From: Terriglobia bacterium | Lineage (GTDB): Bacteria; Acidobacteriota; Terriglobia; 20CM-2-55-15 | Length of the DNA: 64,000 bases | Direction of reading: 5' to 3' | Assembly: GCA_965218585.1 (NCBI GenBank) | Contig: CBDCLE010000002.1 | Coordinates: 320,001-384,000, forward strand | Shown here: positions 1 through 20,544 of the stretch, piece by piece | Layout of the letters: each line of letters begins with the position of its first letter | Numbering within the stretch: the stretch's first letter is position 1 | Translations under genes and position numbers: made by a program | Notes under the pieces: model-generated | The model's database searches: none | What the model was told of the DNA's origin: nothing | What the model saw: only the letters and a program-made list of their open reading frames with translations

Positions 1-273
1 TCGGGTCTCAGTCAGCCGCCCCGCATTCTGAGGCTGCCGGCCGGCCGGGCCCGCAGGGGACTGGCGCGCAGCACCATCTCCCTGCGCATTGCCCAGGGCC
101 GTTTTCCAAGGCCCATTTCTCTGGGCGAGTGGGCCGTCGGCTGGATCGACGTGGAGATGGATGCCGGGTTGCGGCAGCAGATCGAGGCCAGCCGCCGGGA
201 GCCGGAGCCGCTGATCAGGCCATTTGGCGAGTTCGGCAACCTTTCAACGGAAGCTGAATTTCACGAGGCGTGA
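1..273 (+). CDS. AlpA-family regulator/excisionase-like protein (partial, degenerate; not in the ORF track)
   Basis: Frame +1 is open from base 1 to TGA 271-273 and reads RILRLPAGRARRGLARSTISLRIAQGRFPRPISLGEWAVGWIDVE, matching the AlpA pattern ILRL..V...TGLSRSTIY..I..G.FP.PI.LG..AVGW. Confidence 0.75.
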   Translation, partial: SGLSQPPRILRLPAGRARRGLARSTISLRIAQGRFPRPISLGEWAVGWIDVEMDAGLRQQIEASRREPEPLIRPFGEFGNLSTEAEFHEA

Positions 274-390
274 AACGGGGGATCGCGGTCGAAGTGTCGT
301 GGGAACTCCGAGAGCAGATCGGTTTGACGGCGGCACCGTGGAAGCGGTCAACGCGGCCGGGACCGGCACGAACAGGAATGGAGGCGCGCG

Positions 391-726
391 ATGGCGGAGA
401 AATTCTTTTCCCAGCGCGGGGAAGACGACACGGAGAAGGTTTCCGGCGAGCTCATCGAACAGGCTCACGATGAAGAACGCGACAGAGCCGAGGCGGAAAA
501 CCTTGCCCGGCCCCCGGCAGGGGCGGCCGTCTCTCAGAGTGAACGCGATTGGGCGTGGTGCCGGGAGGCGCTTCGGCGCGGGCTGGACCCGGCCATTGTC
601 CGGGCTCGCCTGGAAGACCGGCGGGCCGAGGATCAACCCAACCCAGAACACTACGCACGGCGCACCCTCGAGCGCGCTGAGGCTTCGCTTCGGCGGGAGA
701 TACCGGCCCCGGAGATCGAACGCTGA
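391..726 (+). CDS. Small helical protein resembling the C-terminal domain of RepB'-type plasmid primases (possible remnant)
   Basis: SQSERDWAW...LRRG...NPEHYARRTL motif; no catalytic primase domain seen upstream. Confidence 0.4.
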   Translation: MAEKFFSQRGEDDTEKVSGELIEQAHDEERDRAEAENLARPPAGAAVSQSERDWAWCREALRRGLDPAIVRARLEDRRAEDQPNPEHYARRTLERAEASLRREIPAPEIER

Positions 727-1234
727 TGGGTGATGCGCTGACACGAGACGAACTCCGAAAGATCGTCGTTGACGAGATCCAAGAGTATTTGTCGACCTAT
801 CGCGGAGCGGGTACCGCGGAGCGGTCCAAGGTCGGAACCGAACTATCGAGCGCAATGACACGGATTACAGCCGATTTATTGAAAAAGCGGGAAGGGCTTG
901 TTGCCGCGTTTGCCGTGCCCGGCCAGGTCGATCACGTCATCCGTACCTGGGGACGGGCTATTTTCACCGGCACGCTGATGCTCGCGGGAGTCCTCGGCGC
1001 GGCCTGGCTCGGCATCGCCGCGACCGAACAACGATTTCGGTGGCAGGTGGCAAAGAACGCGGAGATCGCCGAACAGATTGCCGCGCAGGAACGCATCCTG
1101 GATCAACTCAACCGGAGGACGGGCGCGCTTACTCTGGAGGACGTTGCTTCGTGCTTTTTCCCGCTGACGCCGATGTAGCGGCTGTGTATCGGCTCAACAA
1201 TCGGCCGGCCGTCGAGGTTGAATGCCATGAGTGA
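726..1234 (+). pseudogene. Membrane-anchored coiled-coil mobilization accessory protein, probable frameshift near 1135
   Basis: ORF 726-1178 has a TM helix and coiled coil; a more protein-like tail GRCFVLFPADADVAAVYRLNNRPAVEVECHE continues in another frame to 1234. Confidence 0.4.
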
Positions 1235-2036
1235 ACGGGATGCCAATGAGAAACGGAAGATCCCGGTAGGCAAACTCGCCAGCCTGGTCCATTCAGCTGT
1301 TAACAAGAACACGGTCCCTCAACAGGCCGACGCTTCCGAGGAAGGCCAGGGACCGAAGGAGCCGGAGCGGGGCAAGGACCCCGAGAGCAAGCGTGTCAGG
1401 GAATTGGTCAAACTACTCACGGCCGCGATTGATTCCAATGATGCGAAGACCGACGAAAAGATCATCGCACTTGCCCGCAATCTCTCCGAACGAAAACGGA
1501 GTCTGATCCAGATCGCGGCGGTGAAGATCAAACAGACCGAAGAACGGACCGAAGTGGCCCTCGATCAATTTACAGACCGGATCGTGACGTTTCATGACGT
1601 GCTCACCAAAACACTGAAGGAAGGCAATGCGCAGAAAGCTCTCGAGAGAGCGCAAAAGACGCTGGATGACATCCACATGAGTTATTGGGATCGCTTCGTC
1701 AAGGGTGTCAATGACACGTATCAGAACAAACTCGATGACGCGAAGCAGCAGATACAGGGCGTTCTTGACAAGGCGACCGACAACTTTTCCAAGCAAATCG
1801 CCGCACTATTGGACAAGTCCATACGCGAGGTTCAATCGCCCGTCGGGTCGCTCAAGCTCCGGGCCTTCCGGGAGAGGCGATTGCTTATCGGGGCGCTGGT
1901 CCTGGGGCTGATGCTGGGATCTGTCCTTGGAATCATGCGCCACACACTCTGGAACAGCGCCGAGGTGGCCAGCCGTCAGGCGCTCCGCGTGTTCGGTCCT
2001 TTCGTCCTGCCACTCTCAGGTCGGAGTGAACAATGA
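1218..2036 (+). CDS. Hypothetical coiled-coil protein with C-terminal TM helix
   Basis: 272-aa ORF, heptad-rich, LLIGALVLGLMLGSVLGIM; overlaps its neighbours. Confidence 0.65.
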   Translation: MNAMSERDANEKRKIPVGKLASLVHSAVNKNTVPQQADASEEGQGPKEPERGKDPESKRVRELVKLLTAAIDSNDAKTDEKIIALARNLSERKRSLIQIAAVKIKQTEERTEVALDQFTDRIVTFHDVLTKTLKEGNAQKALERAQKTLDDIHMSYWDRFVKGVNDTYQNKLDDAKQQIQGVLDKATDNFSKQIAALLDKSIREVQSPVGSLKLRAFRERRLLIGALVLGLMLGSVLGIMRHTLWNSAEVASRQALRVFGPFVLPLSGRSEQ

Positions 2037-2242
2037 CCCCACATCGGGAGGTGAGCATGCCACGACAGATCCGTGTTGCAACGACGCCGGAGGAATTTAA
2101 CGCCTGTTGGGCCAGTGGCGAGGCGTTCGAGGCGTCGGAAGAGTTGGCCGCCCGGATGGGATTTTTCCCGACCACCGAGGACGTCATCAGCGACGAGGAA
2201 TTTTTTGCCGCGCCCGATCCGAACCAGCCGGAGGCGGATTAA
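2033..2242 (+). CDS. Small acidic hypothetical protein
   Basis: ATGA overlap with the upstream gene; stop abuts the next ATG. Confidence 0.5.
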   Translation: MTPHREVSMPRQIRVATTPEEFNACWASGEAFEASEELAARMGFFPTTEDVISDEEFFAAPDPNQPEAD

Positions 2243-4306
2243 ATGAGCCGGAGAAAAGACTTCATTGATTCTCTCCTCGATGGCGCGTCTCGATTGCATC
2301 GCGCCGCCGGGGGTCACACCCATCACCAGGTCGGCGACCTTCTCGAACGTGGCGCGGATCCAAACATCCGCAATTGGCGGGGCGAGACACCCCTGCATCG
2401 GGCCGCCATCCGGAATCCCGACCTGGATGTATCCCGCACCTTGATTAACGCCCGGGCCGACGTAAACGCCCGGGACGAGACAGGCGCGACGCCATTGCAC
2501 CGGGCCGCGCACAACCCAACCACGGGTCGCGCCCATCTCTTGATAGAGGCGGGGGCGGATGTCGGTGCCCGCGATCACGAGGGACGAACCCCTCTGCATC
2601 ATGCCGCGGAGTCGGGGCGCGAGGAAATGATCGTCTGTTTCATCGAAGCCGGGGCCGACCCGAACGTGCGCGATAACGCGGGCGAGACGCCCCTGCATCG
2701 GGCCCTCGACAAGGGTTGGGGTGAGGGCACCGAGACTCTTCTCAATCATGGGGCCGATCCGAGGGTTCGCGACAACGCGGGGCGGATTCCAATGCACCTG
2801 GCCTATGCCGCCGACCGGCAGGACCTGGTGAATCGGCTCGGCGAAGCCGGGACCCACCTGGAGGCGCGGGATGATACGGGCCGTGTGCCTGTCCAATACG
2901 TTCGCTCCGGAGACGTGCGGACAAGCCCGGAATCGAAGGCGCGGATTCAAGACACTGTCAATCCGGCCGATTCAGAAGGACGCACTCCCTTGCATCGTGC
3001 CGCTGAAAAAGCCTCCTATATCGGCACGCACCGATTGCTTCAACAGGGAGCGGATCCGAACGTTCGCGACAACGAGGGACGGACCCCTCTGGAATTGGCG
3101 ACCGCCAGGCGCGCGCGGCTCGATCACGATGCGCTTCCCATGGGCGATGAAACGGTGCGGCACTTCGAGAAGGTCGCCACGCCCCAACCAGAACACAAAC
3201 CCCACACCGATACCCATCCCGGCAGGGGGCGGCCCACGCGCGGAAAGACAAGCACCGAAGAGTATTACAGGCAGTTTGCCGACGACATCATCTCCCAGAT
3301 CGAGCGTGGCACCGCGCCGTGGCAGAAGCACTGGAAGCCCGGCGAAAACCGATTGCCCGAAAACTTCTCTACGGGCGCGCGCCATCAAGGCGGGAATGCG
3401 TTGCAACTGATGGTCAAGCGCACCGGGCGCGCCTGGAACGATCACCGCTGGGGCACCTACAACCAGATCAAAGAGGCCGGGGGGCAGGTGCGGAAAGGCG
3501 AACGGGGCACCACGATCCTCGTCTACAAGCCGCCGATGCGGGCCGACGGGAAGGAAGCCACCCCGGGCGAGCTGGCCGAAGACGGCCGCAAGAATCCCGA
3601 TGCTCGGAAGACAACGCGGCCCATGTGGAAACGCTACACCGTGTTCAACGTCGAGCAAGCCGACGGGTTGAAACTCCCCAACCGGGCCGCGCCGACTCCC
3701 GAATGGGAGGCGCAGCAGAACGTCGAGAAAGTCATCGAGGCGAATGGTGTGCCGATCCGCGAAGTCAACGGCGACCGGGCCTACTACAACATGCCGCGCG
3801 ACGAGATCGTCCTGCCCGACCGGTCGCAATTCAAGAACGCGGAAGGCTATTACCAGACCGCGCTCCATGAAGTCGGCCACAGCACCGGACACGAGAGCCG
3901 CATGAACCGGGAGAGTCTTCAACAGGGCATCAAGGACGGCTTCGGGTCGGAGGCTTACGCGCGGGAAGAACTGCGGGCGGAAATCAGCGCCATGATGTCC
4001 TCCGATCGCCTGGGCGTGGCCTACGAACCGCAACACGGAACCGCCTACGTCAAGGGATGGGTCGAGGTGCTCCAGGACGACCCGAAGGAAATCCACAAGG
4101 CGGCGGCCGAGGCCGGACGCATTTCCGACTATGTCTGCGAAGCGCCCGAGCGCAACCGAGCCAAGACCATGGGCGAGACCAGGGATCGACCCACCGTAAC
4201 GGGCGAGGTGCCGGGACGCGGGCGGGCGATGCCCACTCCGGTGGTCGCGCATCAACCGCAACCGGCGGTCCCGACGAGGGCACCTGAAATCGAGTTGAGC
4301 CGCTAA
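2243..4306 (+). CDS. Ankyrin-repeat / ArdC (ssDNA-binding DUF1738 + zincin MPTase) fusion protein
   Basis: About 8 ankyrin repeats (GADPN.RD..G.TPLH.A) in aa ~1-290; ArdC-N motifs PWQKHW, GTYNQIKEAGGQVRKGE, YTVFNVEQ; HEVGH zinc motif and YAREELRAE. Confidence 0.92.
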   Translation: MSRRKDFIDSLLDGASRLHRAAGGHTHHQVGDLLERGADPNIRNWRGETPLHRAAIRNPDLDVSRTLINARADVNARDETGATPLHRAAHNPTTGRAHLLIEAGADVGARDHEGRTPLHHAAESGREEMIVCFIEAGADPNVRDNAGETPLHRALDKGWGEGTETLLNHGADPRVRDNAGRIPMHLAYAADRQDLVNRLGEAGTHLEARDDTGRVPVQYVRSGDVRTSPESKARIQDTVNPADSEGRTPLHRAAEKASYIGTHRLLQQGADPNVRDNEGRTPLELATARRARLDHDALPMGDETVRHFEKVATPQPEHKPHTDTHPGRGRPTRGKTSTEEYYRQFADDIISQIERGTAPWQKHWKPGENRLPENFSTGARHQGGNALQLMVKRTGRAWNDHRWGTYNQIKEAGGQVRKGERGTTILVYKPPMRADGKEATPGELAEDGRKNPDARKTTRPMWKRYTVFNVEQADGLKLPNRAAPTPEWEAQQNVEKVIEANGVPIREVNGDRAYYNMPRDEIVLPDRSQFKNAEGYYQTALHEVGHSTGHESRMNRESLQQGIKDGFGSEAYAREELRAEISAMMSSDRLGVAYEPQHGTAYVKGWVEVLQDDPKEIHKAAAEAGRISDYVCEAPERNRAKTMGETRDRPTVTGEVPGRGRAMPTPVVAHQPQPAVPTRAPEIELSR

Positions 4307-4324
4307 CAGAAGGAGGGGCCCGGA

Positions 4325-4594
4325 ATGACGGACACGAAACCGGCCGATGAGATCCGCTTCGGCCGTGTCAAGGGGACAATCTGGATGAATCCCACCGAGG
4401 ACGGACAGGCCCGCTACAGCGTCGTCTTTTCACGCGTCTACCGCGCCGGTGAGCAGTGGAAGAGTACGCACAGCTTCGGCCGCAATGACCTCTTGCTCCT
4501 GGCCAAGGTCGCCGACATCGCACACACCCGGATCTGGGCGCTTCGACAGGATGAAGCAGCCGCGGCCGAGCCGGCGCCCGAGACAGAGGCATAG
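4325..4594 (+). CDS. Small conserved mobile-element protein, putative PC4-like ssDNA-binding fold
   Basis: RBS AGGAGG; EIRFGRVKGTIW...YSVVFSRVY...WKSTHSFGRNDLLLLAKVAD; the fold assignment is inference. Confidence 0.6.
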   Translation: MTDTKPADEIRFGRVKGTIWMNPTEDGQARYSVVFSRVYRAGEQWKSTHSFGRNDLLLLAKVADIAHTRIWALRQDEAAAAEPAPETEA

Positions 4595-4598
4595 CCGC

Positions 4599-5510
4599 GT
4601 GGCGCGCTTTGACATCCGGGAGACGACAACGCGTGACCGGCAACCGGAGCCTGGACCCGAGCGCCGGCCCGACCGGGGGGCGGAGCGCCCCGGACATCGG
4701 CGCACCTACGATCCGCGCCGGGAGTGCCAGGACATCAAAGAGCGAATGCGTGCCGCTGTGGCAGACGTCGGTCATTACCGGGTCCTCGCCCTGGCCGATC
4801 TTGTCCGAGAGCGGTTCGGGGGGAACCCGTTTGCGGCGCGCAAGGCCGTCAACCGAATGAAGGCCGATGGACTGGTCACCGAACGCACCCTTCATGGGCC
4901 CAAGGGCGGGACCTACCGTGTGTTGACTCCCACGGAACAGGGAGCCCGCCGCGCCCTCGAGCAAGGCAGTCAATGGGGCCTGGACCCCGAACAACGAATA
5001 TGGGGGAGCCCACTACCGAAAGCTCACGACGCGAGCCACGATGTGGCCATCTACCGGGCGGCACGGGCCGAACAGGCCCGCTTCCAACAACGCGGGGCAA
5101 CGCTTCGGCGCATCCGCATCGACGCGGAACTGAAAGGTGAGATCAATAGCCGATCCGAGACCGCGCGCATCCGTGGCGGCCAGGAGGCAGCCAACCGGGA
5201 GCGCGAGAAAGCCGCCCGAGAACTCCATCTGCCCGTCCAGGACGGCCGGGTGCAGTATCCCGACGCGCAGCTGGAATTTCTCGAATCCGACGGCCTCACC
5301 CGAGGCCACGTCAACATCGAAGTCGTCTCCGGCAACTACCGGGCCGCCGACATCGCGGCCAAGGCCGCGGCGGGATTCCAGATGCACGGCAACGGCAGCC
5401 CGCGCGCCCAATCGCTCATCGCCAGTGCAGCACAACTCGCCCGGTCGGCGAGTCAGGGCGGTGGCGGTGGCGGTGGTGGCGAACGTGGCAAGGGAGTCAT
5501 CGAACTATGA
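4599..5510 (+). CDS. wHTH + PD-(D/E)xK replication-relaxation (MOBC-like) family protein
   Basis: GTG start at 4599; wHTH-like N-region, HDVAIY, YPDAQLEF and HVNIEVVSGNY motifs; position directly before the virB genes. Confidence 0.6.
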   Translation: MARFDIRETTTRDRQPEPGPERRPDRGAERPGHRRTYDPRRECQDIKERMRAAVADVGHYRVLALADLVRERFGGNPFAARKAVNRMKADGLVTERTLHGPKGGTYRVLTPTEQGARRALEQGSQWGLDPEQRIWGSPLPKAHDASHDVAIYRAARAEQARFQQRGATLRRIRIDAELKGEINSRSETARIRGGQEAANREREKAARELHLPVQDGRVQYPDAQLEFLESDGLTRGHVNIEVVSGNYRAADIAAKAAAGFQMHGNGSPRAQSLIASAAQLARSASQGGGGGGGGERGKGVIEL

Positions 5511-5824
5511 AACCGATCTTCTTTGGCATCGGCATCACGGCGGTGTGGGCCGGGACGGCTGTTCTTTTGGTCGGGTCGCAACTCGATTTCCTATCGCCCT
5601 GGTGGGGCGCGATCCTTCGCACCTATTGGCTCACGCTTACTCTTCACGCGGCGGCGGCGTGCGTCACGAGCATCGTGGTGTTCTACGAGCTGGCACGTGT
5701 GCTGGGGCTGGCCGATCTGGGGCGGCGGGTTGAATTGGTAGAGCGCGGCATTCGCCGTGGCTCCGGGGATCGGGACCTTCAACAGGCTCTCGAACGGGGC
5801 GATGACGGTCTGTATCCCGATTAA
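5507..5824 (+). CDS. Small two-TM membrane protein of the conjugation cluster
   Basis: ATGA overlap with the upstream gene; two hydrophobic helices. Confidence 0.65.
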   Translation: MKPIFFGIGITAVWAGTAVLLVGSQLDFLSPWWGAILRTYWLTLTLHAAAACVTSIVVFYELARVLGLADLGRRVELVERGIRRGSGDRDLQQALERGDDGLYPD

Positions 5825-5846
5825 CAAACGAACAGGGAGGGCAACG

Positions 5847-6140
5847 ATGACTCTGGTTACAAACAACACATGGTGGCACCGCGGCCTGGGGGTCGTGGCG
5901 ATTCTGCTATGCGCTCCGGTCGCGGTATGGGCGCAGAGCCCCTGGCTCCAGGCCATCACCGTCCTGGAGGCCGCATTTACCGGGCCGATCGCGCGCGGGC
6001 TGGCCCTGATCAGCATCGTCTGTGGCGGCCTGATGTTCGCCTTCGGCGAGGGCGGCAGCAAGAAGGCCATGGCCGGGATCATCTTCGGGGTGGGCATGGC
6101 CGTGGGTGCGGTCAATTTCCTCGGCTGGCTGTTTCCCTGA
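5847..6140 (+). CDS. virB2: VirB2/TrbC pilin
   Basis: RBS AGGGAGG; signal peptide, SPW..AI..L...FTGPIARGLALISIV.GGLMFAFGEG. Confidence 0.9.
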   Translation: MTLVTNNTWWHRGLGVVAILLCAPVAVWAQSPWLQAITVLEAAFTGPIARGLALISIVCGGLMFAFGEGGSKKAMAGIIFGVGMAVGAVNFLGWLFP

Positions 6141-6451
6141 TGGCGCGGCAAGGCAAGCGGCTCTGGCCCTGCTACCCCAGTCTCAGCCGCCCGCTCACCA
6201 TCATGGGGGTCGAACGCACGTGGTTCATCCTGAGCGCCACGCTGGCGCTCGCCCTCTGGAATGCCCTGAACGCCATCGTCACGGCAGCCGTGGTTTTTGT
6301 TGTGTTGTGGGGCGCGGGCTACCTCGCCTGGAAACAGGATCCCAACATGCTGGCGATCCTCAAGGCGTCGACCCGTTTCAAACCGCGTTACGACCCCGGC
6401 AAGTGGATTGCCGAGCCGTGGCGCGTGATCCTCGAAGGACGGCATCCATGA
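6140..6451 (+). CDS. virB3: VirB3/TrbD
   Basis: SLSRPLTIMGVER, two TM helices, KQDP..L, RYDP; lies between virB2 and virB4. Confidence 0.9.
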   Translation: MARQGKRLWPCYPSLSRPLTIMGVERTWFILSATLALALWNALNAIVTAAVVFVVLWGAGYLAWKQDPNMLAILKASTRFKPRYDPGKWIAEPWRVILEGRHP

Positions 6452-8880
6452 ATCTTGCCGGTGAACGCAGGGAATACGATGCGGCCGGCGCGCTGGCCGA
6501 GGAGTTGCCCTGGTGGGGTTATCTCAATGACGACCGGACCTGCCTGACCCGGGATGGTCAGTTGCTATGCGTCGGCCGCATCACCTCGAGCACGCTCGAT
6601 GGCCGAACGGGCGAGGCGCTCGATACGGTGCTGGAACGCTGGACCCGGCTGCTCTCCAATGTCGAGCCCGGCGGCCGGCTCCATTTCTATCTGCTCCGGC
6701 GGCCGGTTGACCTTCCCGCAGACGCATCCGATGACGGCGATAGCGTCTCGGCACTTGCGCGGCGGCGCCGCAAGGCATTCCTTACCGAACGATTGCAGGA
6801 CGTTCAGGCGTATCTGGTCTGGTGTCACGATCCGGGATTGCAACAGGCCACCACGATGCATGGACGGGGGCCGTGGTGGTTCAACTACTGTCGCGCCTGG
6901 TTTGCCCGGAACCGGGCGCCGCATGAGGCCGTCTACATTTACGACGAGATCGAGACCGCGGCCTCGCGTTTCCGGCAGGTTGTGGATGCCGCCTCGAAGC
7001 TCGTCTCCGACCTGACCCCGATCGAATTGTTGAACGGCCGGGACGGGGGCCGTTTCTTCAGTGAGTTGGTCAACCGGCCGGGGTTGCCCTGGGATGGCTC
7101 GGTCAGCTCTGGATTGAACTGGAGCCTCGCCGTTTCCGAGTTGGATGCCGAGCGGCGCTTCCTGCGCCTCGACGGGGAACCCGTCATCCTCTATTCCCTG
7201 CTCTCGCCACCGGGCGCGGCCCGCGCCAACATGCTCAACGACCTGTATCGGCTCGACGCCCGCATGACGGTGTCGCTGGAATGGCGCCCCTACACGACCG
7301 AGGCGGGCCGGAAGAAGATCAACTCCGCGCGCAAGCACTACTTCTCGCAGCGGTACTCGATGATGGCGCACGTTCAGGAAACCGAAGGCAGTGCCGTGGC
7401 TATGGAGGACAGCGTGGCCAGCGCGGAGTCGGATCGGTTGTCCAAAGCCCTGGTGGAACTCGAAACCGATGGCATTGCCTATGGCGACGTGAGTTTGTCC
7501 ATCGCCTTGCATGGCGAGCTGGCCGACATCGAGCGCCTGGATGGCGACGTGCGGCGCATCTTCGCCACCCACGACGCGAAGCTGATCCGGGAGGGCTATG
7601 GGCAACTCGCGCAGTGGTTCAATCGGATGCCCGGCCAGCCCCGCTCCCGGCAACTGCGCAAGGTCCTGGTGTCCGCCGGTGCCGCTGCCTCGCTCGCGCC
7701 CCTGTTCGGCCCGCCGCGCGGCACGGAGCGGAGCGCCCATCTTGGTGCGCCGGCACTCACAACACTCGAAACCCATTGGCAAACGCCATTCTTCTATGAC
7801 CTCTTTGCCGATGTCGGGCACACGCTGATCCTGGGAGCGACCGGGGCCGGCAAGAGCTTCACGCTGAATTTCCTGCTCGTTCAGGCGTTGCAGTACCGGC
7901 CGCGCGTCCTGATTCTCGACCTCGGGGGAAGCTATCGCTGGCTCACACGCTTCCTTGGCGGGGGCTACCTGGAACTCTCGCCCGATGACAGCCGATCGGA
8001 GGATGCCTTCCGGTTGCAGCCGTTCAGTCTCCCGCCCGGTGAGCGCACGTTTCAGTTCCTCACCGGCTGGGTCACGCGACTCCTCCGGCTCGGGGGCATG
8101 GAAACCAGCGGCGACGATCCCACCGAGATCCGCAACCGCATCGAAGACCTTTATGCCTTTCCCCCGGCACGGCGCGACCTCAGTTCCCTGGTCCGGTCCT
8201 TGCCCAGGCGCATGTGGGCGGCGATGGGACGCTGGCACGGCGCGGGCACCTGGGCCCGGTATTTCGACAACCCGGCCGACGGCGCCGACCTGGAATTTGC
8301 CGACTGGCAAGTGATCGATCTGGCCGGGGCGGCCGAGCATGAAGACCTGTGCGAAGCCGCCATGTTCTACCTGCTCGAACGCCTGCGGCTTGCGCTGGAA
8401 GACCCCGCCGGCATTGCCCGGGTCAAGCTCATGGTGGTGGACGAGGCGTGGCGCTACCTCAAGGACCCGGCCGTGCTGTCCTATCTCGCCGAGGCCGCCA
8501 AGACCTGGCGGAAGAAGAACGCCGCCCTCATCATGGCGACACAGAGCGCGGTCGATGTGACCGGTACGACCGGCGCATCCGGGCTGCTCGAATCCATGCC
8601 CACCAAGGTGTTCCTGGCGAACCCGAATCTCCCCGAAAAGGTCGGGGAGATCTTCCGGCTCAATCCCAGCGAAATGGAGACGATCCGATCTCTCGTTCCC
8701 AAGATGGAACTCTACCTCCGGCGCGCCGGAGAGGCCGCGATCCTCCGGCTCGAAGTCGATCCGGCGAGCTACTGGCTCTATACCTCCAACCCCCGTGATT
8801 CCGAACGGCGCGCCCGGATGATCGAGGAACACGGACTGCAACGCGCCCTGGAAATCCTGGGCGCAGGGAGTGAACAGTGA
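6448..8880 (+). CDS. virB4: VirB4/TrbE ATPase
   Basis: ATG at 6448; VGHTLILGATGAGKSF Walker A, MVVDEAW Walker B, KTWRKKNAALIMATQS. Confidence 0.95.
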   Translation: MNLAGERREYDAAGALAEELPWWGYLNDDRTCLTRDGQLLCVGRITSSTLDGRTGEALDTVLERWTRLLSNVEPGGRLHFYLLRRPVDLPADASDDGDSVSALARRRRKAFLTERLQDVQAYLVWCHDPGLQQATTMHGRGPWWFNYCRAWFARNRAPHEAVYIYDEIETAASRFRQVVDAASKLVSDLTPIELLNGRDGGRFFSELVNRPGLPWDGSVSSGLNWSLAVSELDAERRFLRLDGEPVILYSLLSPPGAARANMLNDLYRLDARMTVSLEWRPYTTEAGRKKINSARKHYFSQRYSMMAHVQETEGSAVAMEDSVASAESDRLSKALVELETDGIAYGDVSLSIALHGELADIERLDGDVRRIFATHDAKLIREGYGQLAQWFNRMPGQPRSRQLRKVLVSAGAAASLAPLFGPPRGTERSAHLGAPALTTLETHWQTPFFYDLFADVGHTLILGATGAGKSFTLNFLLVQALQYRPRVLILDLGGSYRWLTRFLGGGYLELSPDDSRSEDAFRLQPFSLPPGERTFQFLTGWVTRLLRLGGMETSGDDPTEIRNRIEDLYAFPPARRDLSSLVRSLPRRMWAAMGRWHGAGTWARYFDNPADGADLEFADWQVIDLAGAAEHEDLCEAAMFYLLERLRLALEDPAGIARVKLMVVDEAWRYLKDPAVLSYLAEAAKTWRKKNAALIMATQSAVDVTGTTGASGLLESMPTKVFLANPNLPEKVGEIFRLNPSEMETIRSLVPKMELYLRRAGEAAILRLEVDPASYWLYTSNPRDSERRARMIEEHGLQRALEILGAGSEQ

Positions 8881-9749
8881 TGACTCATCGACCTTTTACG
8901 CGGCGGGTCGCGCGGACGGCGCTCGCTCTCGCCGGCACCGCGCTTCTCTGGCTGGGACAGCCTCCGTCGAGTACCGCCCAGGACGCCGGCCCCATGCTGC
9001 GCATCGAGGCGATCCCCGGTGTCGATCAACTTGTCGATATCGAGACCCGGGTGCGCCATACCACCGTCATCGTCCTGCCGGAGAACGAGAACATCCTCGA
9101 TTTCGTGGTCGGGGATTCCGAGTACTGGCATCTGACCGGCGCGGCGAATGTGGCCTTCCTGAAGCCGATCGCAACGGGTGTGGAAACCAACGTCGCCCTG
9201 ATTTGCGAGTCCGGACGGATCTATTCCTTCCTCGCATCCGAAGGCGGGGAGCCTCACCTGGTCGTCCGGATCGAGCCGCCGCCCGAGGACGACACTCTCA
9301 TATCGGCAGAACCGCACACGCCCGCCTTCATTGCCCGTTCCGAAGTCACCGCCTATCAGGTCATGGCGCAACAGGCCCGGGAGACCGCGCGCAACGCCCA
9401 GGTGGCGGCCGACACGGTGGCCGCCGAAGCGCGCGCCGCGGCCGCTGCGGCGGTCGAGGAGTTTCGGGCGGACTATCCCACGCGGCTGCATTTTGTTTAC
9501 AGCCTGTCGGATCGAGCTCTCGATCCCCCCTTCAATGTCGAAGCCATGTGGCACGACGGCCAGTTCACCTATCTCCGCTCCCACGCCCAGGAATCGCCGG
9601 CCCTGTATGAAGCCGTCGACGGCGACCCGTCGCTGGCCGCCTACGACCTCACCGAAGACGGCCTGTTCATTGTGCGGCGCATCCTCGATTCCGGCTGGCT
9701 GCAGATTGGAGAGCGCCGGGCGATCTGGCGCTACGAACCGGAGCGTTAG
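8877..9749 (+). CDS. virB9: VirB9/TrbG
   Basis: Signal peptide; RHTTVIVLPENE, FLKP...ETN, MWHDGQFTYL, ESPALY motifs. Confidence 0.9.
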   Translation: MMTHRPFTRRVARTALALAGTALLWLGQPPSSTAQDAGPMLRIEAIPGVDQLVDIETRVRHTTVIVLPENENILDFVVGDSEYWHLTGAANVAFLKPIATGVETNVALICESGRIYSFLASEGGEPHLVVRIEPPPEDDTLISAEPHTPAFIARSEVTAYQVMAQQARETARNAQVAADTVAAEARAAAAAAVEEFRADYPTRLHFVYSLSDRALDPPFNVEAMWHDGQFTYLRSHAQESPALYEAVDGDPSLAAYDLTEDGLFIVRRILDSGWLQIGERRAIWRYEPER

Positions 9750-9751
9750 TC

Positions 9752-11125
9752 ATGAGTCTATGGAAAAAGATTCCCATCGCGCCGGGGGGCGTCATGCCCG
9801 AGGGCCTGGTCACCAAGATCGGGGTCGCGGCCATATCCCTGCTCCTGGCCGCCATGCTCCTGACCTACAGTTTCACCGGCGGCGGGCCCGAAGCCGAGAT
9901 CGACGTTCCCGAAGCCGCCGGCTTCGATCTTCAGCAGAGGGCCGCCGCCGCAATCGAAGCCGAAGCCCGCCGGCAAGCCGAGCAGCTCCAACAACAGGCC
10001 GTAGCGGCCGAGCGCCAGTTGGCCCAACTCCAGAACGAACAGGAATCGAATGCGGCCATATTGGGAGCGGGCATCGTGCCCCTCCCCGCTCAAGACCCCG
10101 CGACAGGCTTCCCGCCTGACGATCAACCCGTCCCCTTCGAAGGCAACGCCCCACGTAGCGAGGCCGAGGCCGTCCTGCTCGAAACGCTGCGGCTCGAGGA
10201 AATGGAGCGCCGTCGGCGTTCCCTGCGCACCGAGCCGCTCGTGCTGTCCTACCGGAACCCCGACCCGGACCCCGCCGCGGCTAACGATGCGGGGACGGGC
10301 GCCGAAGCCCTGGCGCAACTGCCGGGCATATTTTCGGACCGCGTTCAGGCCGCCCAGGCTACCCGGGCCGGCGTCACGGCCGAAGACTCCATTGCCACGG
10401 CCGGGGAATTTCTCCAATTGCTCAACGAACTCAACGACCGGGAACTGGCCGCGACCGCACAGCCCGCACCGGGGGCGGGAGCCGCGGCCCCTGTTTCACT
10501 CACACAACCATCGATGGAAACGCCCGTGGCCGGCCAGCCGGCGGATCCGGACGGTTGGGATCGCATCTATGAAGGATCGTTTTTAGAGGCCGTTCTCGTC
10601 ACGCAGCTCAGTGGCGATTTCCCCGGTCCGGTCCTCGCCAACGTATCGGTTCCCTTTTATTCGACCGACCGCCAACGCGTCCTGATCCCGCGTGGCGCGC
10701 GGGTCGTCGGTACCGTCGAGGCGGTTGCGGGAGTCGATCAAGAGCGCCTGGCCGTGGCCTTCCACCGCATCATCTGGCCCGACGGCCGGAGCGTCTCGCT
10801 CGAATTCAACGGCCTCAACCAGATTGGGGAAGGCGCGCTCAAGGACGAAGTCGATCGGCATTATTTCTCGATGTTCGCCGCGGCCGGGGCCGTCGGCGTC
10901 CTTTCCGGCCTGACCGCCATCGGATCCAACCCCTATGCCGGAGGCCGGGCCGGTTTCCAGGCCGGAGCCAGTCAAGGGCTCGGGCAAGGCGCGGTACGGA
11001 TTCTCGAACGCTTCCTCAATCGCTTTCCCACCATCACGATTCGCGCGGGCCACCGCTTGCGAATCTGGTTCACCGGCGATGTCCTCGTGCCGCGGCAACC
11101 GCCGCCGACTGGGAGAATCCAATGA
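9752..11125 (+). CDS. virB10: VirB10/TrbI
   Basis: N-terminal TM helix; EGSFLEAVLVTQL, LIPRGARVVG, D.VDRHY, PTITIRAGHRLRIW. Confidence 0.93.
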   Translation: MSLWKKIPIAPGGVMPEGLVTKIGVAAISLLLAAMLLTYSFTGGGPEAEIDVPEAAGFDLQQRAAAAIEAEARRQAEQLQQQAVAAERQLAQLQNEQESNAAILGAGIVPLPAQDPATGFPPDDQPVPFEGNAPRSEAEAVLLETLRLEEMERRRRSLRTEPLVLSYRNPDPDPAAANDAGTGAEALAQLPGIFSDRVQAAQATRAGVTAEDSIATAGEFLQLLNELNDRELAATAQPAPGAGAAAPVSLTQPSMETPVAGQPADPDGWDRIYEGSFLEAVLVTQLSGDFPGPVLANVSVPFYSTDRQRVLIPRGARVVGTVEAVAGVDQERLAVAFHRIIWPDGRSVSLEFNGLNQIGEGALKDEVDRHYFSMFAAAGAVGVLSGLTAIGSNPYAGGRAGFQAGASQGLGQGAVRILERFLNRFPTITIRAGHRLRIWFTGDVLVPRQPPPTGRIQ

Positions 11126-11988: not shown

Positions 11989-12019
11989 GGACCGTTCGCA
12001 AACTAAGAGGAGCATCCCC

Positions 12020-12913: not shown

Positions 12914-12915
12914 AG

Positions 12916-13435
12916 ATGCTGATGAAAAAACGGGTCGTTACATGGACGCTCCTGGTCGCACTCGCCGCGGCCGTCCCGGCCTTCGGCATCTTCGGCATTC
13001 CCAGCCCGGACGAACTCCTGATCTGGTTGGTTTTGCGGCCGATGATGCACGGCAACCAGCGGACGATGGTTGCCAACCAGGTTCAGGAGCTTCAAAAGCT
13101 CGTGGAACAGTTGCAAACCGCTCAGAGCCAACTCACCCAGGTCCGTGACGCGGCGCAGGGTTTGGTGGGCGCACTCACAGAGCCGATGGCCGAACTGGCC
13201 GCAACGCCCACCGATTTGCTCCACACCGCGCGCGACTGGCACACGGATTTCACCGGGCCGGCCGGGGATATGGTTACCGCTGTTGCTGAGCTTTCCAACG
13301 GCACGCCGTTCAGTCGGAGCTGGCGCGACGTGTTGCAACAGGCCGACACCGTTTCTGTGGCCGACATCCGGAACGTCTACCGGAGCGATCCCAATGCCGC
13401 CGACTCGGCGATGGCGACCTTCGTCCGGCAGCGGG
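12916..13435 (+). pseudogene. TrbJ/VirB5-like paralog 3, 3'-truncated
   Basis: Similarity to paralogs 1 and 2 ends abruptly after ATFVRQRD (~13435). Confidence 0.7.
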
Positions 13436-13981
13436 ATGCTGGACATTGTCCTCAATGGCTTCACGAACCTGTCCTACCTGTTCATGGCCTTTCTCCACAC
13501 CATCATCTTCGAGCTTTTTCTTCTGCTCATTCTCGTGTGTCTCATCGTGATCTATGCCGTTTCAATGGGGCAGGTGATCTGGGCACAGCTCGCCCTCGGC
13601 GTGCTCCTGATCCTCGGCCCGCTCTTCATTCCCTTTCTCCTGGTCGAGCCCCTCGCGTTCCTGTTCTGGGGATGGTTCAAGGGCATGTTCACCTACACCC
13701 TCTACGGCGCGATCGCGGCGGCGCTCATGCGGGTGTTCCTGGCGGCCAGCATGGGCTGGATCGAGGCCATTATCAACGGTCCGCCGCCCGGTAACAGCTT
13801 CTGGTGGCACAGCACGGCCTGGTTCCTCAGCATTGTTCCCCTGGTGGCCGCGGGGCTTTTGTCCTCGCTGATGATCGGCACGCTTGCCTCACAACTCGTC
13901 TCGGGGAGCGGAGGTGGGGGTGGAATCATGGGCCTCGTCGGCCAGGCCGCCAGCGGGGTTTCCAAATTCAAGGGAGCATAA
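13436..13981 (+). pseudogene. virB6: VirB6/TrbL C-terminal portion (N-terminal part apparently deleted)
   Basis: LGPLFIPFLLVEPLAFLFWGWFK, polytopic TM helices, LASQLVSGSGGGG; only ~180 aa and joined to the truncated paralog 3. Confidence 0.75.
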
Positions 13982-13986
13982 ACGTC

Positions 13987-14667
13987 GTGGCAAAACCCAA
14001 AGACAAAGAATCCGACGCCGGCCGGGAATACGCCGAGATATGGGGCGAGACGATCCACTCGAACCGTCACTTTCGCGTGTTCTCCATCGTCCTCGGCGTC
14101 CTGCTTCTATGCGTCACCATCGCCGTGGTTCGCCTGTCATCGGTCGAGCCGCCCAGGCCGATTGTCGTTCGGGTGGACGAGGTCGGCCGGGCCGAAGCCC
14201 TGGCCTATGAAACGGTCGAGGCCCAGGCCGACCCCCGCGACCCGACCACCAAGTACTTCCTCAACCGCTTCCTCCATGACCACTTCGACCGACGCCAGGC
14301 GACGGCCCAGGAGTACTGGCCCCGCAGCCTCCGGTTTCTCAGTACCGATCTGGCCAACGCCGCTTTCACCGCCAGCAACGAGGAAATCGCCATGCTGGCC
14401 GCCGGGATCACCCCCGAAGAACTCCGGGTCGAGAATGTCGTGCTCCGGATTCAGGCCAATCCCACCGAGCCCCACGGGGCGGTGGCCGACTTCGTCTTGA
14501 TCCGCACACGGCAGGAGCGGGAGGTATCGAGAGAGGCATGGACCGCCACGATGCAGTTTGTTTTCATGCCGGTCATACCGGCCGACCTGGTCATCTTCAA
14601 TCCAATGGGCATCCAGATCACATATCTCGAAACCGATAGAACCCTCATCACGAGCGAGACGCCATGA
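13987..14667 (+). CDS. virB8: VirB8/TrbF
   Basis: GTG at 13987; TM helix, PIVVRVDEVGRAEA, KYFL..F, NPMGIQI. Confidence 0.9.
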   Translation: MAKPKDKESDAGREYAEIWGETIHSNRHFRVFSIVLGVLLLCVTIAVVRLSSVEPPRPIVVRVDEVGRAEALAYETVEAQADPRDPTTKYFLNRFLHDHFDRRQATAQEYWPRSLRFLSTDLANAAFTASNEEIAMLAAGITPEELRVENVVLRIQANPTEPHGAVADFVLIRTRQEREVSREAWTATMQFVFMPVIPADLVIFNPMGIQITYLETDRTLITSETP

Positions 14668-15961: not shown

Positions 15962-15964
15962 AAA

Positions 15965-19283: not shown

Positions 19284-19700
19284 ATGAACGATAAATCAAA
19301 ATCTGCGCTCTCGCTGGTGACCCCCCAAGCGCGGCACCACTTCACCCGCCTGGATCAGGTGGACCGACTCATAGGGGCTGGGGAGTCGGACTCAGACATT
19401 GGTTACATGGGGCGGCTGTTGGCGCTGTGCAGCTTGCCACGCACCAACCCTGGAAACCGCCATCAGTACGAACGTGTCAATGGACCGTACAAACTCGCCA
19501 TGCTTGCAGGTGTGGACAGCAAACTCCCGTTCGGTCACATACCCCGCCTATTGCTCGCATGGGTCTGCACTGAAGCGGTACGGACACAAAGCAGGGACTT
19601 GTTTTTAGGGAAATCTCTTTCCGTCTTTATGCGGCGATTAGGCATCGATCCGGCTGGGGCATCTTATGCCCGAGTCCGCAATCAGATGAAACGATTATTT
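19284..19700 (+). pseudogene. repA: Plasmid replication initiator RepA (RepA_C family), truncated by IS5
   Basis: LALCSLPRTNPG, YERVNG, LPFGHIPRLLLAW, LGKSLS.FMRRLG, RNQMKRLF, then IS sequence. Confidence 0.85.
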
Positions 19701-20494
19701 AGGGCGTGTTAACACTAATGAGCATGAATGTTTTATAATCAGGCATGGAGATCACACAGGAGCAGTATTGTCGCATCGAGCCGGAACTGCCGCGTCAGCG
19801 GGGCAACGTCAGTCTTTCGAACCTGACGGTCTTGAACGCCATTTTGTATGTGGCTGAGCAGGGCTGCAAGTGGCGCGGTCTGCCCAAGCGCTTTGGCAAC
19901 TGGCACACCATCTACACCCGGATGAACCGCTGGTCCAAGAACGGGGTGCTCGACGCCGTCTTCGAAAAACTCCAGCGCGAGCAACTGGTGCGCATCCGGG
20001 TGGAAGCCGTTTCGATGGACTCGACCATTGTGAAGGTGCATCCCGACGGCACGGGAGCGTTAAAAAAAACGGTCCGCAAGCGATCGGCAAATCCCGCGGT
20101 GGATGGACCACCAAGATTCATCTGGTTGCCGCGAATGCTCGAACGGCGATAACGTTTGCGCTCTCGCCCGGCCAAGCGCACGACGCCCCGCAGGGCCGCG
20201 ATCTGCTCGCCGGCCTGGGGCCGTTGCCCGCGCCGCTGCCGCTGCTGATGGACCGTGCCTACCAGGACGACCAGACCCGCCAATTGGCTCTGGATTTTGG
20301 GTGGATTCCCGTCGTGCCGCCCAAGCGCAACCGCCTGGAGCCGTGGGAATACGACCGCGTGCTCTACCGCCGCAGGAACGAAGTCGAGAGGCTCTTCCGC
20401 CGACTCAAGGGTTTTCGGCGTATCTTCTCCCGTTTCGATAAACTCGACGTCATGTTCCTCGCCTTCCTTCACTTCGCACTCATCGTCGACCCTA
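19701..20494 (+). mobile_element. IS5-family (IS427-like) insertion sequence, right end mostly lost
   Basis: Left end agggcgtgttaacact; the right end retains only ccct before the fdx stop codon. Confidence 0.85.
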
Positions 20495-20544
20495 GTGAGC
20501 TTCTCGGGCCGCGTTTCTATTCCAATCCGGAATATAAACGATGA
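19745..20544 (+). CDS. IS5-family transposase, two ORFs joined by -1 frameshift at A8 (20062-20069)
   Basis: GCKWRGLPKRFGNWHTIYTRMNRWS; DSTIVKVH; GKSRGGWTTKIH; DRAY; YRRRNEVERLFRRLK; native stop lost so the frame runs into fdx. Confidence 0.88.

Follow-up and report, generated by a model that had tools for sequence, protein, structure and literature searches.

The window (the whole 64,000-nucleotide stretch of Terriglobia DNA analysed here; all coordinates below are on its + strand) contains a single intact open reading frame of 687 aa, running from ATG to stop at 2243-4306, which we call Ank-ArdC and which heads a co-oriented VirB/D4 type IV secretion system (T4SS) operon. Its carrier belongs to a family of small integrative conjugative elements (T4SS, RepA, tyrosine integrases) in Terriglobia genomes. 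Along the protein lie about nine ankyrin repeats, a disordered linker, a complete ArdC core and a disordered tail, and the only Pfam families matched are Ank, ArdcN and MPTase. An earlier sequence-only reading had described one frame holding ankyrin repeats, a linker, ArdC-N and an HExxH MPTase, in the same orientation as a VirB/D4 cluster; the first point is confirmed by the ORF, Pfam, motifs and an AlphaFold2 model with a confident array, disordered linker and folded core, and the second by the same-strand set from VirB2 to VirB11 with a coupling protein downstream.

The ankyrin array (2243..3178, residues 1-312; Ank_2, 1.3e-43, above the curated Pfam cut-off) comprises about nine repeats including caps and eight G-x-TPLH-type motifs, and is modelled by AlphaFold2 as nine helix pairs (residues 5-312) with a pLDDT around 90, apart from a low-confidence insert at residues 222-233. 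A basic, poorly conserved Pro/Gly/Thr-rich linker (3179..3253, residues 313-337, pI 10.9; pLDDT <50 over residues 313-334) leads into the folded core at residues 338-647. The core begins with the ArdC-N ssDNA-binding domain (3254..3652, residues 338-470, pI 9.9), recognised by alignment to R388 ArdC and by the ArdcN family (PF08401; residues 340-468, 7e-32, 110.7 bits vs a cut-off of 22.6), and continues with a zincin (gluzincin) metallopeptidase domain (3695..4183, residues 485-647) that matches MPTase-PolyVal above its curated cut-off (residues 493-622, 5.1e-38). The remaining tail (4184..4306) is predicted to be disordered (residues 647-687, pLDDT <50, at 29-34) and ends in ...APEIELSR followed by the stop codon. 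Because the whole-model pTM is 0.44 and the linker has a pLDDT below 50, the array and the core appear to be joined by a flexible tether. The array was also considered as a DNA mimic of the ArdA/Ocr kind and rejected, given its pI of 6.3 and its 49 acidic vs 43 basic residues.

Residues 340-633 align with crystallised R388 ArdC (structures 6i89 and 6sna) over chain residues 8-286 (E 4e-41). In this alignment H542, E543 and H546, from the HEVGH motif at residues 542-546 (nt 3866-3880), correspond to R388 H201, E202 and H205, while E575 and E576, in the glutamate helix, and Y602 correspond to E228, E229 and Y255. A 67-row family alignment shows no variation at H542, E543, H546, E576 or Y602, and a conservation of at least 90% at E575. 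Judged by sequence, the window protein is thus an ArdC-type protein with the full core, both the ssDNA-binding ArdC-N domain and an intact gluzincin protease.

Upstream of Ank-ArdC, the window opens with an AlpA-type gene for a DNA-binding regulator or excisionase-like protein (1..273; Phage_AlpA 1.7e-10), whose 5' end lies beyond the window. Upstream of the cassette in locus L048 there is a homologue as well; this locus is from another family, keeps the Ank-ArdC slot and has T4SS proteins that share only 59-75% identity with those of the window. Next come a small protein with a RepB_primase_C-like helical domain (391..726; a Pfam match of 9.9e-5 that falls short of the curated cut-off), which shares 77% identity with residues 84-211 of a 211-aa homologue in genome G508, its own N-terminal part being missing or diverged; a conserved 150-aa backbone protein with a hydrophobic segment and no Pfam match (726..1178; 42-62% identical in 8 of 9 loci); and a helical, coiled-coil-looking 272-aa protein with a C-terminal membrane segment and no curated-level family match (1218..2036), which is the fastest-evolving backbone gene (24-56% identity across loci). 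The 216 nt upstream of Ank-ArdC fold into hairpins no better than shuffles do (z -0.15), and no sigma-70-like promoter was found in 1-6500, where 0.8 would be expected; with neither a notable ssDNA hairpin nor such a promoter, the region bears no mark of early expression in a recipient, which counts against the role proposed below.

Downstream lie a conserved 89-aa protein without a Pfam match (4325..4594; 80-88% identical in 8 of 9 loci) and a conserved protein of uncertain start (4449..5510) that has, from sequence alone, a helix-turn-helix-like stretch and a faint PaaX match only. The latter is 53-75% identical in 8 loci, with a truncated match in a further one (L001). No canonical relaxase was found among the ORFs scanned in the window and in the G508 element, and the 4449..5510 product is a possible DNA-processing protein of an element that does without one. 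The secretion genes follow on the same strand: VirB2/TrbC pilin (5757..6140; TrbC 7.5e-12), VirB3 and the VirB4 ATPase (6140..8880, about 6140-6451 and about 6448-8880 with approximate starts; VirB3 5.1e-10 and P-loop families), VirB9 (CagX) and VirB10 (TrbI) (8877..11125; 8.4e-25 and 8.5e-42), VirB8 (13804..14667; 1.9e-15), the type IV coupling protein (16121-18142; TraG-D_C 4.2e-9) and the VirB11 ATPase (18139-19122; T2SSE 6.6e-45). Beyond them a truncated RepA_C-type gene (19299..19700), covering only residues 2-135 of its 247-aa G508 homologue, is interrupted by an insertion sequence whose transposase (19870..20544; DDE_Tnp_1 1.9e-13) marks the broken right end of the element, where GC content drops from 0.61-0.66 to 0.54-0.58. 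The G508 copy is intact and terminates in RepA and two integrases. Integrases of this type are missing here, as no match was found within the window or in the 20 kb upstream, and the window's element, truncated by the insertion sequence, is probably no longer mobile.

Two features that the sequence-only reading did not mention are a small acidic gene abutting the Ank-ArdC start codon and the ...SR end of the protein. The gene (2057..2242) encodes 61 aa with 14 D+E and 3 K+R; its TAA stop abuts the ATG of Ank-ArdC, and a Shine-Dalgarno sequence, GGGAGGTG, lies upstream. The protein is 72-83% identical in 8 of 9 loci, and among 21 copies of the gene in 8 genomes 18 are directly followed by an Ank-ArdC ORF. 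It belongs to no Pfam family (0 of 9 members at a meaningful E-value) and has no Atlas match. Members of the same family also precede plain ArdC cores, at 14 of 24 loci and 16-206 nt upstream, so that the array fills the space between an older pair of genes. A predicted complex of the 61-aa protein with Ank-ArdC scored 0.53, against 0.00 for the best of three controls; of 80 solved complexes 58 attain that mark, as do 2 of 110 mismatched pairs, and as only 7 of the 80 solved complexes, together with both passing mismatches, pass at 0.60 or below, 0.53 is a weak pass. At least 80% of contacts agree between runs and the partner has a pLDDT of at least 74, the prediction giving no interface. The 61-aa protein is a candidate partner or chaperone of ArdC.

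A terminal arginine is shared by 191 of 204 Ank-ArdC relatives, vs 13 of 143 unrelated ankyrin giants, and it is found in every class: 94 of 99 relatives with the array at the N-terminus (N-Ank), all 6 with the array at the C-terminus (C-Ank) and 91 of 99 plain relatives. The ...SR end stays at the very C-terminus regardless of domain order, and 53 of 118 long TraC-type relatives end in SR. The tail is therefore a candidate C-terminal signal, the function of which would depend on its terminal position. Two of the plasmid-database (PLSDB) matches, H4 and H25, are long TraC-type genes that run past the edge of their locus.

Besides the window protein, the N-terminal array order occurs in 105 protein clusters (90% identity) and the reverse order in 6; a pool of 224 proteins divides into 106 N-Ank (the window's included), 6 C-Ank, 105 plain and 7 Ank-only. 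The occurrence of the fusion in both orders argues that tethering matters, rather than position. On a core tree of 204 rows no fewer than 15 changes account for the N-Ank label, starred branches forcing 10, while the C-Ank label needs 4, with 3 forced. Gains are not separable from losses on this tree, and incomplete gene calls may explain some of the "plain" rows within Ank clades. The Ank-ArdC slot is kept in 8 of 9 other related loci, all Terriglobia integrative conjugative elements. Whole-protein searches of phylum and class genomes scored two candidates per genome, and hence undercount in ankyrin-rich genomes and give weak negatives; in one genome (G459) there are 9 copies of the small gene vs 2 Ank-ArdC places reported by such a search. 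Among relatives at 50% identity, the best 150 representatives are mostly giant ankyrin proteins, with the best stretch in the ArdC part in 9 of the 150, and PADLOC matches to Ank-ArdC are likewise confined to the ankyrin part. Three "sponge metagenome" runs contain 6-7% of the sampled words, and in one of them (X10) coverage is essentially limited to the conserved ArdC core, at 90-95% likeness.

The fusion is also bridged by contigs: an 851-nt contig from run X2 spans window 2417-3267, including the Ank-to-ArdC junction, with 0 differences, and a contig of a relative from run X3 bridges window 2404-3393, the window's own source sample possibly being among these runs. The sequence-only reading had allowed for a one-off chimera and singled out the junction for checking against reads; the 105 other clusters of the same order and the slot kept in 8 of 9 loci exclude such a chimera. 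Since 105 clusters share the architecture and dN/dS is below 1 in both halves, the fusion is more than chance. We consider it extremely improbable that the array is a neutral or decaying N-terminal extension, or an artefact of assembly or gene calling. This view can draw on the truncation of the window's element, on broken copies elsewhere (G473 with one TAG, G409 with a frame closing at 443 aa) and on short or array-less forms inside Ank clades, and it is largely refuted by the intact 687-aa frame, the selection on the array described below, the 105 same-order clusters and 6 reversed ones, the confident AlphaFold2 model of the array and the contigs bridging the junction.

Relatives carry from 2 to 16 ankyrin repeats, and close relatives keep the ArdC core (95% identity) with a different set of repeats. 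P0002, for example, is 95% identical to the window protein in the core and alignable in the array over only 169 residues, at 96% and in shifted register. Across loci the T4SS core proteins are 85-94% identical and Ank-ArdC 46-62%. The dN/dS of the ankyrin half is 0.28-0.37 and that of the core 0.16-0.30, plus one value of 0.46 from a near-identical pair; at about 0.3, the value for the array means purifying selection. Being well below 1 across the gene, it lends no support to positive selection on this half and gives no direct arms-race signature, a point that counts against the array as a reader of targets. Canonical ankyrin binding positions are more variable than the rest in 4 of 4 subgroups, though this is expected of any ankyrin protein. 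The dS of the array is likewise raised in distant pairs, which points to recombination, or to alignment of non-orthologous repeats, rather than to fast point evolution. The N-terminal cap, MSRRKDFIDSL..., is conserved in clade-i copies.

How does Ank-ArdC compare with known systems? ArdC proteins are common on broad-host-range plasmids. With the ArdC of R388 (and of pSa) the window protein shares the two-domain core, over residues 8-286 of 297, and all metal-binding and catalytic residues, and its carrier, like the IncW plasmid R388, is a conjugative element equipped with a VirB/D4-type T4SS. Unlike R388 ArdC, it adds a 312-residue N-terminal array, the linker and the disordered ...SR tail of roughly 50 residues, and it has a dedicated small acidic upstream gene, an integrative element and an Acidobacteriota host. 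Identity to plasmid homologues in the core is only some 40% (41-45% for plasmid ArdC-like genes), and of the 3376 PLSDB records that match, none spans 80% or more of the fusion. Like the polyvalent proteins of phages and conjugative elements (Iyer 2017), the window protein has ArdC-N and MPTase as hubs to which a further module is attached, and its carrier is a conjugative element; the logic of delivery with DNA proposed for those proteins is the same. Among them is the TraC-primase-type combination of ArdC-N, DUF5710, MPTase and Toprim. The polyvalent proteins differ from the window protein in that its added module is a non-catalytic repeat array, with only two module types in all, and in that their ArdC-N is an N-terminal "header", whereas the window's starts at residue 338, behind the array; among the relatives ArdC-N is a header only in the 6 C-Ank proteins. 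Of 120 long relatives (>1203 aa) only 2 are Ank-ArdC, both simply with longer arrays. The sequence-only reading took ArdC to be a carrier for an ankyrin module and did not know the architecture as a described system. The general idea of ArdC-N/MPTase as a carrier for add-on modules delivered with DNA is already a published polyvalent-protein hypothesis (PMC5512222). The ankyrin architecture was not found described in our literature search, the main text of Iyer 2017 having 0 occurrences of "ankyrin" or "ANK" (PMC5512222); its supplementary tables may list one.

The small acidic gene abutting the gene of an ssDNA-binding protein, beside a VirB/D4-type system, recalls VirE1-VirE2 of Agrobacterium. 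There the small acidic chaperone VirE1 is co-expressed with VirE2, a secreted protein that binds ssDNA (PMC4513855, PMC5389803). The likeness is a functional analogy only, as Pfam gives no sequence relationship, and VirE2, unlike the window protein, has neither a protease nor an ankyrin domain. VirE1 has about 65 aa, and the VirE1 and VirE2 genes are translationally coupled. Ankyrin proteins are classical T4SS effectors (Legionella AnkX/AnkY and others), and in the poxvirus Ank/PRANC proteins the ankyrin part is a substrate adaptor for a degradative enzyme. As in both of these groups, the array of Ank-ArdC may be a target-binding module in a secretion or invasion process; unlike the poxvirus adaptors, the window protein has the degradative enzyme in the same polypeptide, and its context is bacterial conjugation. 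A related zincin fold is shared with the repressor-cleaving ImmA/IrrE-type metallopeptidases (PMC7213743), from which the window protein differs in being placed by Pfam in MPTase-PolyVal and in having no cognate repressor gene seen alongside.

Here, we propose for Ank-ArdC a role in establishment or anti-defence, as a protein of the ArdC type whose ankyrin array is a variable module for target recognition, a reading to which we give an even chance of being right. In this proposal the protein would probably act as DNA enters the recipient. The array would recruit to ArdC, bound to ssDNA, some protein of the recipient, most plausibly one that serves restriction or another defence, and this protein would be sequestered or cut by the protease alongside; array variation would adapt the element to different recipients. 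Two further steps are suggested by the acidic partner protein and the conserved ...SR end: in the donor the former may keep Ank-ArdC off DNA, as VirE1 does for VirE2, and Ank-ArdC may, like VirE2, be exported via the VirB/D4 system. By analogy, delivery through the T4SS is plausible, and the F-plasmid T4SS is reported to carry SSB, PsiB and other proteins into recipients (PMC8406263). Two results from R388 count against parts of the proposal. R388 ArdC works if made in the recipient and not if made in the donor (PMC7213743), which counts against delivery of Ank-ArdC. In the same study its protease activity was dispensable for anti-restriction against HsdRMS (PMC7213743), which counts against a role for the protease as proposed here. 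The pull-down reported there gave only one co-eluting protein, of unknown function, and no clear substrate (PMC7213743). The proposal in its fullest form strikes us as unlikely: conjugative elements of Acidobacteriota would inject, along with their DNA, a DNA-tethered anti-defence protease with targets that are set by the array and change as repeats are swapped, held inactive in the donor by an acidic VirE1-like chaperone and exported by means of an ...SR signal common to ArdC/TraC-type proteins in general.

What else might the array do? One option is docking or scaffolding: the array could bind the element's own coupling protein, relaxosome-like proteins or the small acidic protein, or self-assemble on ssDNA. 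Constant linkage with the same T4SS backbone and small acidic gene fits this option, as do the conserved clade-i cap and the complex weakly predicted between the small protein and full-length Ank-ArdC; yet a conserved partner is poorly matched by an array that is reshuffled while the T4SS core stays conserved, and the small acidic gene accompanies plain ArdC, so that the array is not required for that pairing. On balance we regard docking as an unlikely alternative of some weight. Quite unlikely, in our view, is a regulator of the element in place of an anti-defence factor, a switch of the ImmA/IrrE kind: binding of ssDNA, or a signal sensed through the array, would activate the protease to cut a repressor and so turn on excision and transfer in the donor. 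The ArdC protease domain is a structural neighbour of IrrE, which cleaves the repressor DdrO, and R388 anti-restriction, in needing no protease, leaves the purpose of the protease free (PMC7213743); the gene, moreover, heads the transfer operon near an AlpA-type regulator. Against such a switch, Pfam identified no repressor gene alongside Ank-ArdC in the window, the plain ArdC homologues are anti-restriction proteins acting in recipients (PMC7213743), and a hypervariable array suits variable foreign targets better than one cognate repressor.

Lastly, the array could be the active part of an effector aimed at eukaryotes, as in Legionella, Coxiella or Wolbachia, with ArdC merely its carrier. The standing of ankyrin proteins as T4SS effectors invites this idea, and the best NCBIfam matches are indeed Dot/Icm ankyrin models (T4SS_AnkY, AnkH, AnkX and others); their best score, however, is 112.2 bits vs a cut-off of 600, and scores so far below the cut-offs indicate repeat similarity only. 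The genome has many ankyrin genes (23 matches) and a 1256-aa LRR protein lies near the element of a relative, while the T4SS, with its coupling protein, is part of a compact integrative conjugative element that also has RepA and integrases, and the array is fused to an anti-restriction core that binds ssDNA and retains its catalytic residues. We therefore hold an effector of this kind to be very unlikely, and the link to symbionts of eukaryotes drawn in the sequence-only reading is unsupported, the carrier being a small integrative conjugative element in Terriglobia genomes.

Ank-ArdC is an ankyrin-tagged form of a known ArdC/polyvalent-protein type. A large natural family keeps the same core permanently attached, on one side or the other, to an array that binds proteins and varies, which argues that proteins are brought to the core for it to act on, and the natural ankyrin arrays are baits with which to fish for the proteins that the ArdC protease acts on. 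The acidic partner gene and the terminal ...SR are testable handles on the long-debated travel of ArdC-type proteins with DNA. For the soil Acidobacteriota, a poorly studied group, the family shows that their integrative conjugative elements carry their own fast-changing establishment module.

Our analysis establishes Ank-ArdC as an intact ArdC core joined by a flexible tether to a folded ankyrin array under selection, held in a fixed slot of a conjugative operon, co-inherited with a small acidic gene, and with a C-terminus that keeps its end position. The gene (window 2243-4306, +) is a single uninterrupted ORF of 687 aa, in which Pfam families were matched above their curated cut-offs: Ank_2, among other ankyrin families (1.3e-43), ArdcN at residues 340-468 (7e-32) and MPTase-PolyVal at residues 493-622 (5.1e-38). 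The crystal structures of R388 ArdC (6i89/6sna, residues 8-286 of 297) match residues 340-633 (E 4e-41), and the metal ligands and catalytic residues listed for R388 ArdC (H201, E202, H205, E228, E229 and Y255; PMC7213743) align with H542, E543, H546, E575, E576 and Y602. All six are invariant in a 67-row family alignment except E575, which is at least 90% conserved. By every sequence feature tested, Ank-ArdC belongs to the ArdC family. The AlphaFold2 model (mean pLDDT 76, pTM 0.44) has an array of 9 helix pairs (residues 5-312, most with pLDDT ~90), an unconfident linker (313-334), the ArdC core (338-647) and a disordered tail (647-687); a pTM this low alongside confident domains is consistent with two rigid modules joined flexibly. 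The same strand carries, further downstream, VirB2 (5757-6140, +), VirB3, VirB4, VirB9, VirB10, VirB8, the coupling protein and VirB11. The sequence-only reading, which had described an ankyrin-ArdC-protease protein co-oriented with a VirB/D4 cluster and named an AlphaFold model as a check, was thus correct in its description.

The fusion is not a one-off chimera, a prospect which that reading had raised. A search of 5.8 billion clustered proteins supplied the best 120 matches, most with Ank, ArdcN and MPTase. Pooled with 103 further matches from a search with the core and the window's protein (n=224) and sorted by a local repeat HMM and core alignment, they comprise 106 proteins with an N-terminal array (the window's and 105 others), 6 in the reverse order (ArdC-N, MPTase, then Ank), 105 plain ArdC and 7 ankyrin-only, both domain orders being confirmed by Pfam scans of eight examples. 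Relatives carry 2 to 16 repeats. Among 120 relatives longer than 1203 aa, 2 are Ank-ArdC with merely longer arrays and the remaining 118 are of the known ArdC-N + DUF5710 + MPTase (+Toprim) primase type. At the junction (~3100-3260), where a check of the reads had been advised, one public-run contig spans window 2417-3267 with 0 differences and a relative with ~265 additional bases bridges 2404-3393; as these runs may contain the source sample, the family-level evidence is the stronger argument against a chimera. In a FastTree built from 204 full cores, the N-terminal-array label takes 15 changes or more, of which starred branches force 10, while 4 changes (3 forced) are needed for the C-terminal label; gains and losses are not separable on this tree, sampling is skewed to ankyrin-bearing proteins, and plain rows may partly be truncated gene calls. 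The core appears to have been joined to an array repeatedly and independently, for which the existence of both domain orders is firm evidence.

Some copies are incomplete. P0164 (298 aa) equals residues 390-687 with 2 differences, and for its near-identical copy on a 62-kb contig the protein database has the 298-aa call only, without the 687-aa protein; the gene in that assembly seems to be called from an internal Met, or interrupted. Two further copies look broken, the frame closing at 443 aa in G409 (L047/L055) and containing one in-frame TAG in G473 (L046), and may be pseudogenes or misassembled.

Nine other loci, two from one Terriglobia MAG and seven from same-class genomes, were compared with the window. 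Eight keep the order o726, o1218, Ank-ArdC, o4325, o4449, o5507 (window ORFs named by start), VirB3, VirB4, VirB9, VirB10 ... VirB8 ... VirD4, VirB11, a count that includes L048, which lacks o726, o1218 and o4325; the ninth (L001) ends after o4449. L048 comes from a different family (G418), and its protein shares 95% identity with P0089, which falls in a distinct Ank clade (26 rows) on the core tree. In the intact G508 copy a RepA_C gene closes the operon together with two tyrosine integrases, which identifies the carrier as a small integrative conjugative element. The window's RepA is interrupted by an IS after residue 135 (19299-20544) and no integrase was found in the window or the 20 kb upstream, so this copy is probably immobile. 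The window's first 20 kb, bracketed by IS transposases, has a GC content of 61-66% versus 54-58% for the remainder (source assembly 4.55 Mb, 26 contigs). No canonical relaxase domain was found among the scanned ORFs (window 1-20000; G508:C2 about 521000-581000, loci L043, L049 and L050); the candidates for DNA processing are a conserved helix-turn-helix-like protein (4449-5510), the RepA_C protein and a RepB_primase_C-like protein. In PLSDB, none of 3376 matching plasmid records covers at least 80% of Ank-ArdC, and the ArdC half is 41-45% identical to proteobacterial plasmid ArdC-like genes.

Around the element, two DDE_Tnp_1_4 transposase genes with equal Pfam scores (8.4e-158) flank the region (L011 18226-19641, upstream, and window 60897-62312), and between them lie a Mutator-family transposase (26138-27436) and an rve integrase-core gene (23445-25193). 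A 654-aa protein encoded a short way before the window's start (L011 15778-17742; G000:C2:315778-317742) has N-terminal ankyrin repeats and a weak squalene-hopene-cyclase-like match at its C-terminus; the source genome has 23 ankyrin matches to the query overall. In G508, a 1256-aa leucine-rich-repeat and fibronectin-III protein (L050 2485-6255, -) lies ~1.5 kb past the element's left end and could be cargo or a chromosomal neighbour.

Across the syntenic loci, identity to the window's proteins is 83-94% for VirB3, VirB4 and VirB9, 46-62% for whole Ank-ArdC and 24-34% for o1218. Within Ank-ArdC, the core retains 80-98% identity and the array, changing in length, 40-72%. In the closest relative, P0002, the core is 95% identical while only 169 array residues align (96% identity, register shifted), the other repeats being replaced; repeat content thus changes even over a short evolutionary distance. 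In pairwise comparisons the array has a dN/dS of 0.28-0.37; in the core it is 0.16-0.30, apart from a single 0.46 obtained with two near-identical sequences. The array is functional and constrained only somewhat less. Array dS is also raised in distant pairs, which points to recombination or non-orthologous repeats and not to rapid point change. Repeat positions 2, 3, 5, 13, 14 and 33, which we take to be the binding positions of designed ankyrin proteins, have higher column entropy than other array positions in all four equal-length subgroups (0.34 vs 0.23, 0.65 vs 0.41, 0.16 vs 0.05 and 1.03 vs 0.54; permutation p 0.03, 0.005, 0.006 and 0 of 5000 shuffles). Since exposed positions vary in any ankyrin protein, this pattern is consistent with, and not proof of, changing array specificity. 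The 8.4-Mb genome G459 has up to 9 cassette copies with differing arrays.

The 206-nt "gap" before Ank-ArdC contains a 61-aa ORF (window 2057-2242) with the ribosome-binding site GGGAGGTG, a TAA stop directly adjoining the ATG of Ank-ArdC, and 14 acidic versus 3 basic residues. The protein is conserved in 8 of the 9 loci (72-83% identity). Searching 401 sampled genomes of the class with its profile gave 21 copies in 8 of them, all within the window's family; 18 copies are followed within 18 nt by an ORF that starts MS[RL]RK.FIDSL and contains 6 or more ankyrin motifs. A diverged acidic homologue of 63 aa lies upstream in L048, and with this added to the profile, the family lies 16-206 nt upstream of the core on the same strand in 14 of 24 plain ArdC loci (Acidobacteriota genomes, L012-L041, about 1050-1530 in strand coordinates) and, among 6 Ank-fused loci, ~1000-1380 nt upstream in 5, the sixth being too short. 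Because it also precedes plain ArdC, the small gene appears to be a partner of ArdC rather than of the ankyrin repeats, and the array sits in the space between an older gene pair. The family (~60-70 aa), with the core pattern T.EEF..A...G..FEAS.ELAA.MGF, seems to be an ArdC partner not described before; neither Pfam nor the Atlas gave a match for the small protein. Its predicted complex with the whole Ank-ArdC chain lends weak support, scoring 0.53 (best of 3 controls 0.00), a mark that 58 of 80 solved complexes and 2 of 110 mismatched pairs attain, with scores of 0.60 or below comprising only 7 of the 80 solved complexes and both passing mismatches. Contact agreement between runs was at least 80% and partner pLDDT at least 74; the interface was not given. 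The element family occurs in several copies within single Terriglobia genomes (small-gene copies: G459 9, G508 4, G503 2, G415 2; loci L051-L071), and no intact Ank-ArdC lies behind two of the small-gene copies in G415 and behind one in G422. An Acinetobacter plasmid (NZ_CP113937.1, L073 1316-1480) has a 54-aa hypothetical gene directly upstream of an ArdC-like zincin gene.

The predicted disordered tail has a conserved end, APEIELSR (window 4283-4303), R687 being at least 90% conserved in the 67-row alignment. A C-terminal Arg is present in 191 of 204 full-core relatives (94/99 with the array before the core, 6/6 with it after, 91/99 plain), most of which terminate in [STNG]R, compared with 13 of 143 unrelated giant ankyrin proteins; an SR end is found in 53 of the 118 long TraC-primase-type relatives. 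Where the domain order is reversed, ...SR comes after the ankyrin array, and is thus at the very C-terminus whatever precedes it. VirB/D4 substrates carry C-terminal, Arg-containing signals, and a motif confined to the free C-terminus is as would be expected of a secretion signal. The ...[STNG]R end of ArdC-family proteins is possibly a general export or recognition signal.

In light of this anatomy, what might Ank-ArdC do? [quoted passage not shown] ArdC-N and MPTase are described as hubs of polyvalent proteins, proposed to enter along with DNA (PMC5512222). VirE2, which binds ssDNA and is secreted, has the small acidic protein VirE1 as its chaperone (PMC4513855, PMC5389803), and an F-plasmid T4SS moves SSB, PsiB and other proteins into recipients (PMC8406263). 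We suggest that the array would bring a protein of the recipient, variable in identity and most plausibly part of its defences, to ArdC on ssDNA, where it would be sequestered or cleaved; in the donor, the small acidic protein would prevent ArdC-N from binding DNA, and export would be directed by the ...SR end. We give this adaptor reading as a whole roughly even chances, and hold export of Ank-ArdC tentatively, leaning somewhat against it. The array may instead dock onto the element's own machinery, which we consider unlikely, or the protein may be an ImmA/IrrE-like regulatory protease of the element, which we consider quite unlikely. An effector directed at eukaryotes is highly improbable, and Ank-ArdC falls outside the Dot/Icm ankyrin effector families (112 bits vs a cut-off of 600). 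That an array with such dN/dS values is an extension without function has a next to negligible chance.

Ank-ArdC fits the broad definition of polyvalent proteins but breaks their stated rule of ArdC-N at the N-terminus. The sequence-only reading knew of no described system with this architecture, and our literature searches (ArdC, DUF1738, anti-restriction or Acidobacteria ICE with ankyrin) agree, giving no description of an Ank-ArdC fusion among the papers listed, as judged by title or abstract. The main text of Iyer 2017 (PMC5512222) does not contain the word ankyrin; its supplementary architecture tables, and domain-architecture databases, may list the combination. Ank-ArdC arrays offer natural baits for substrates of the ArdC protease, and the small acidic gene and the ...SR end are two features through which export of ArdC-type proteins could be tested.
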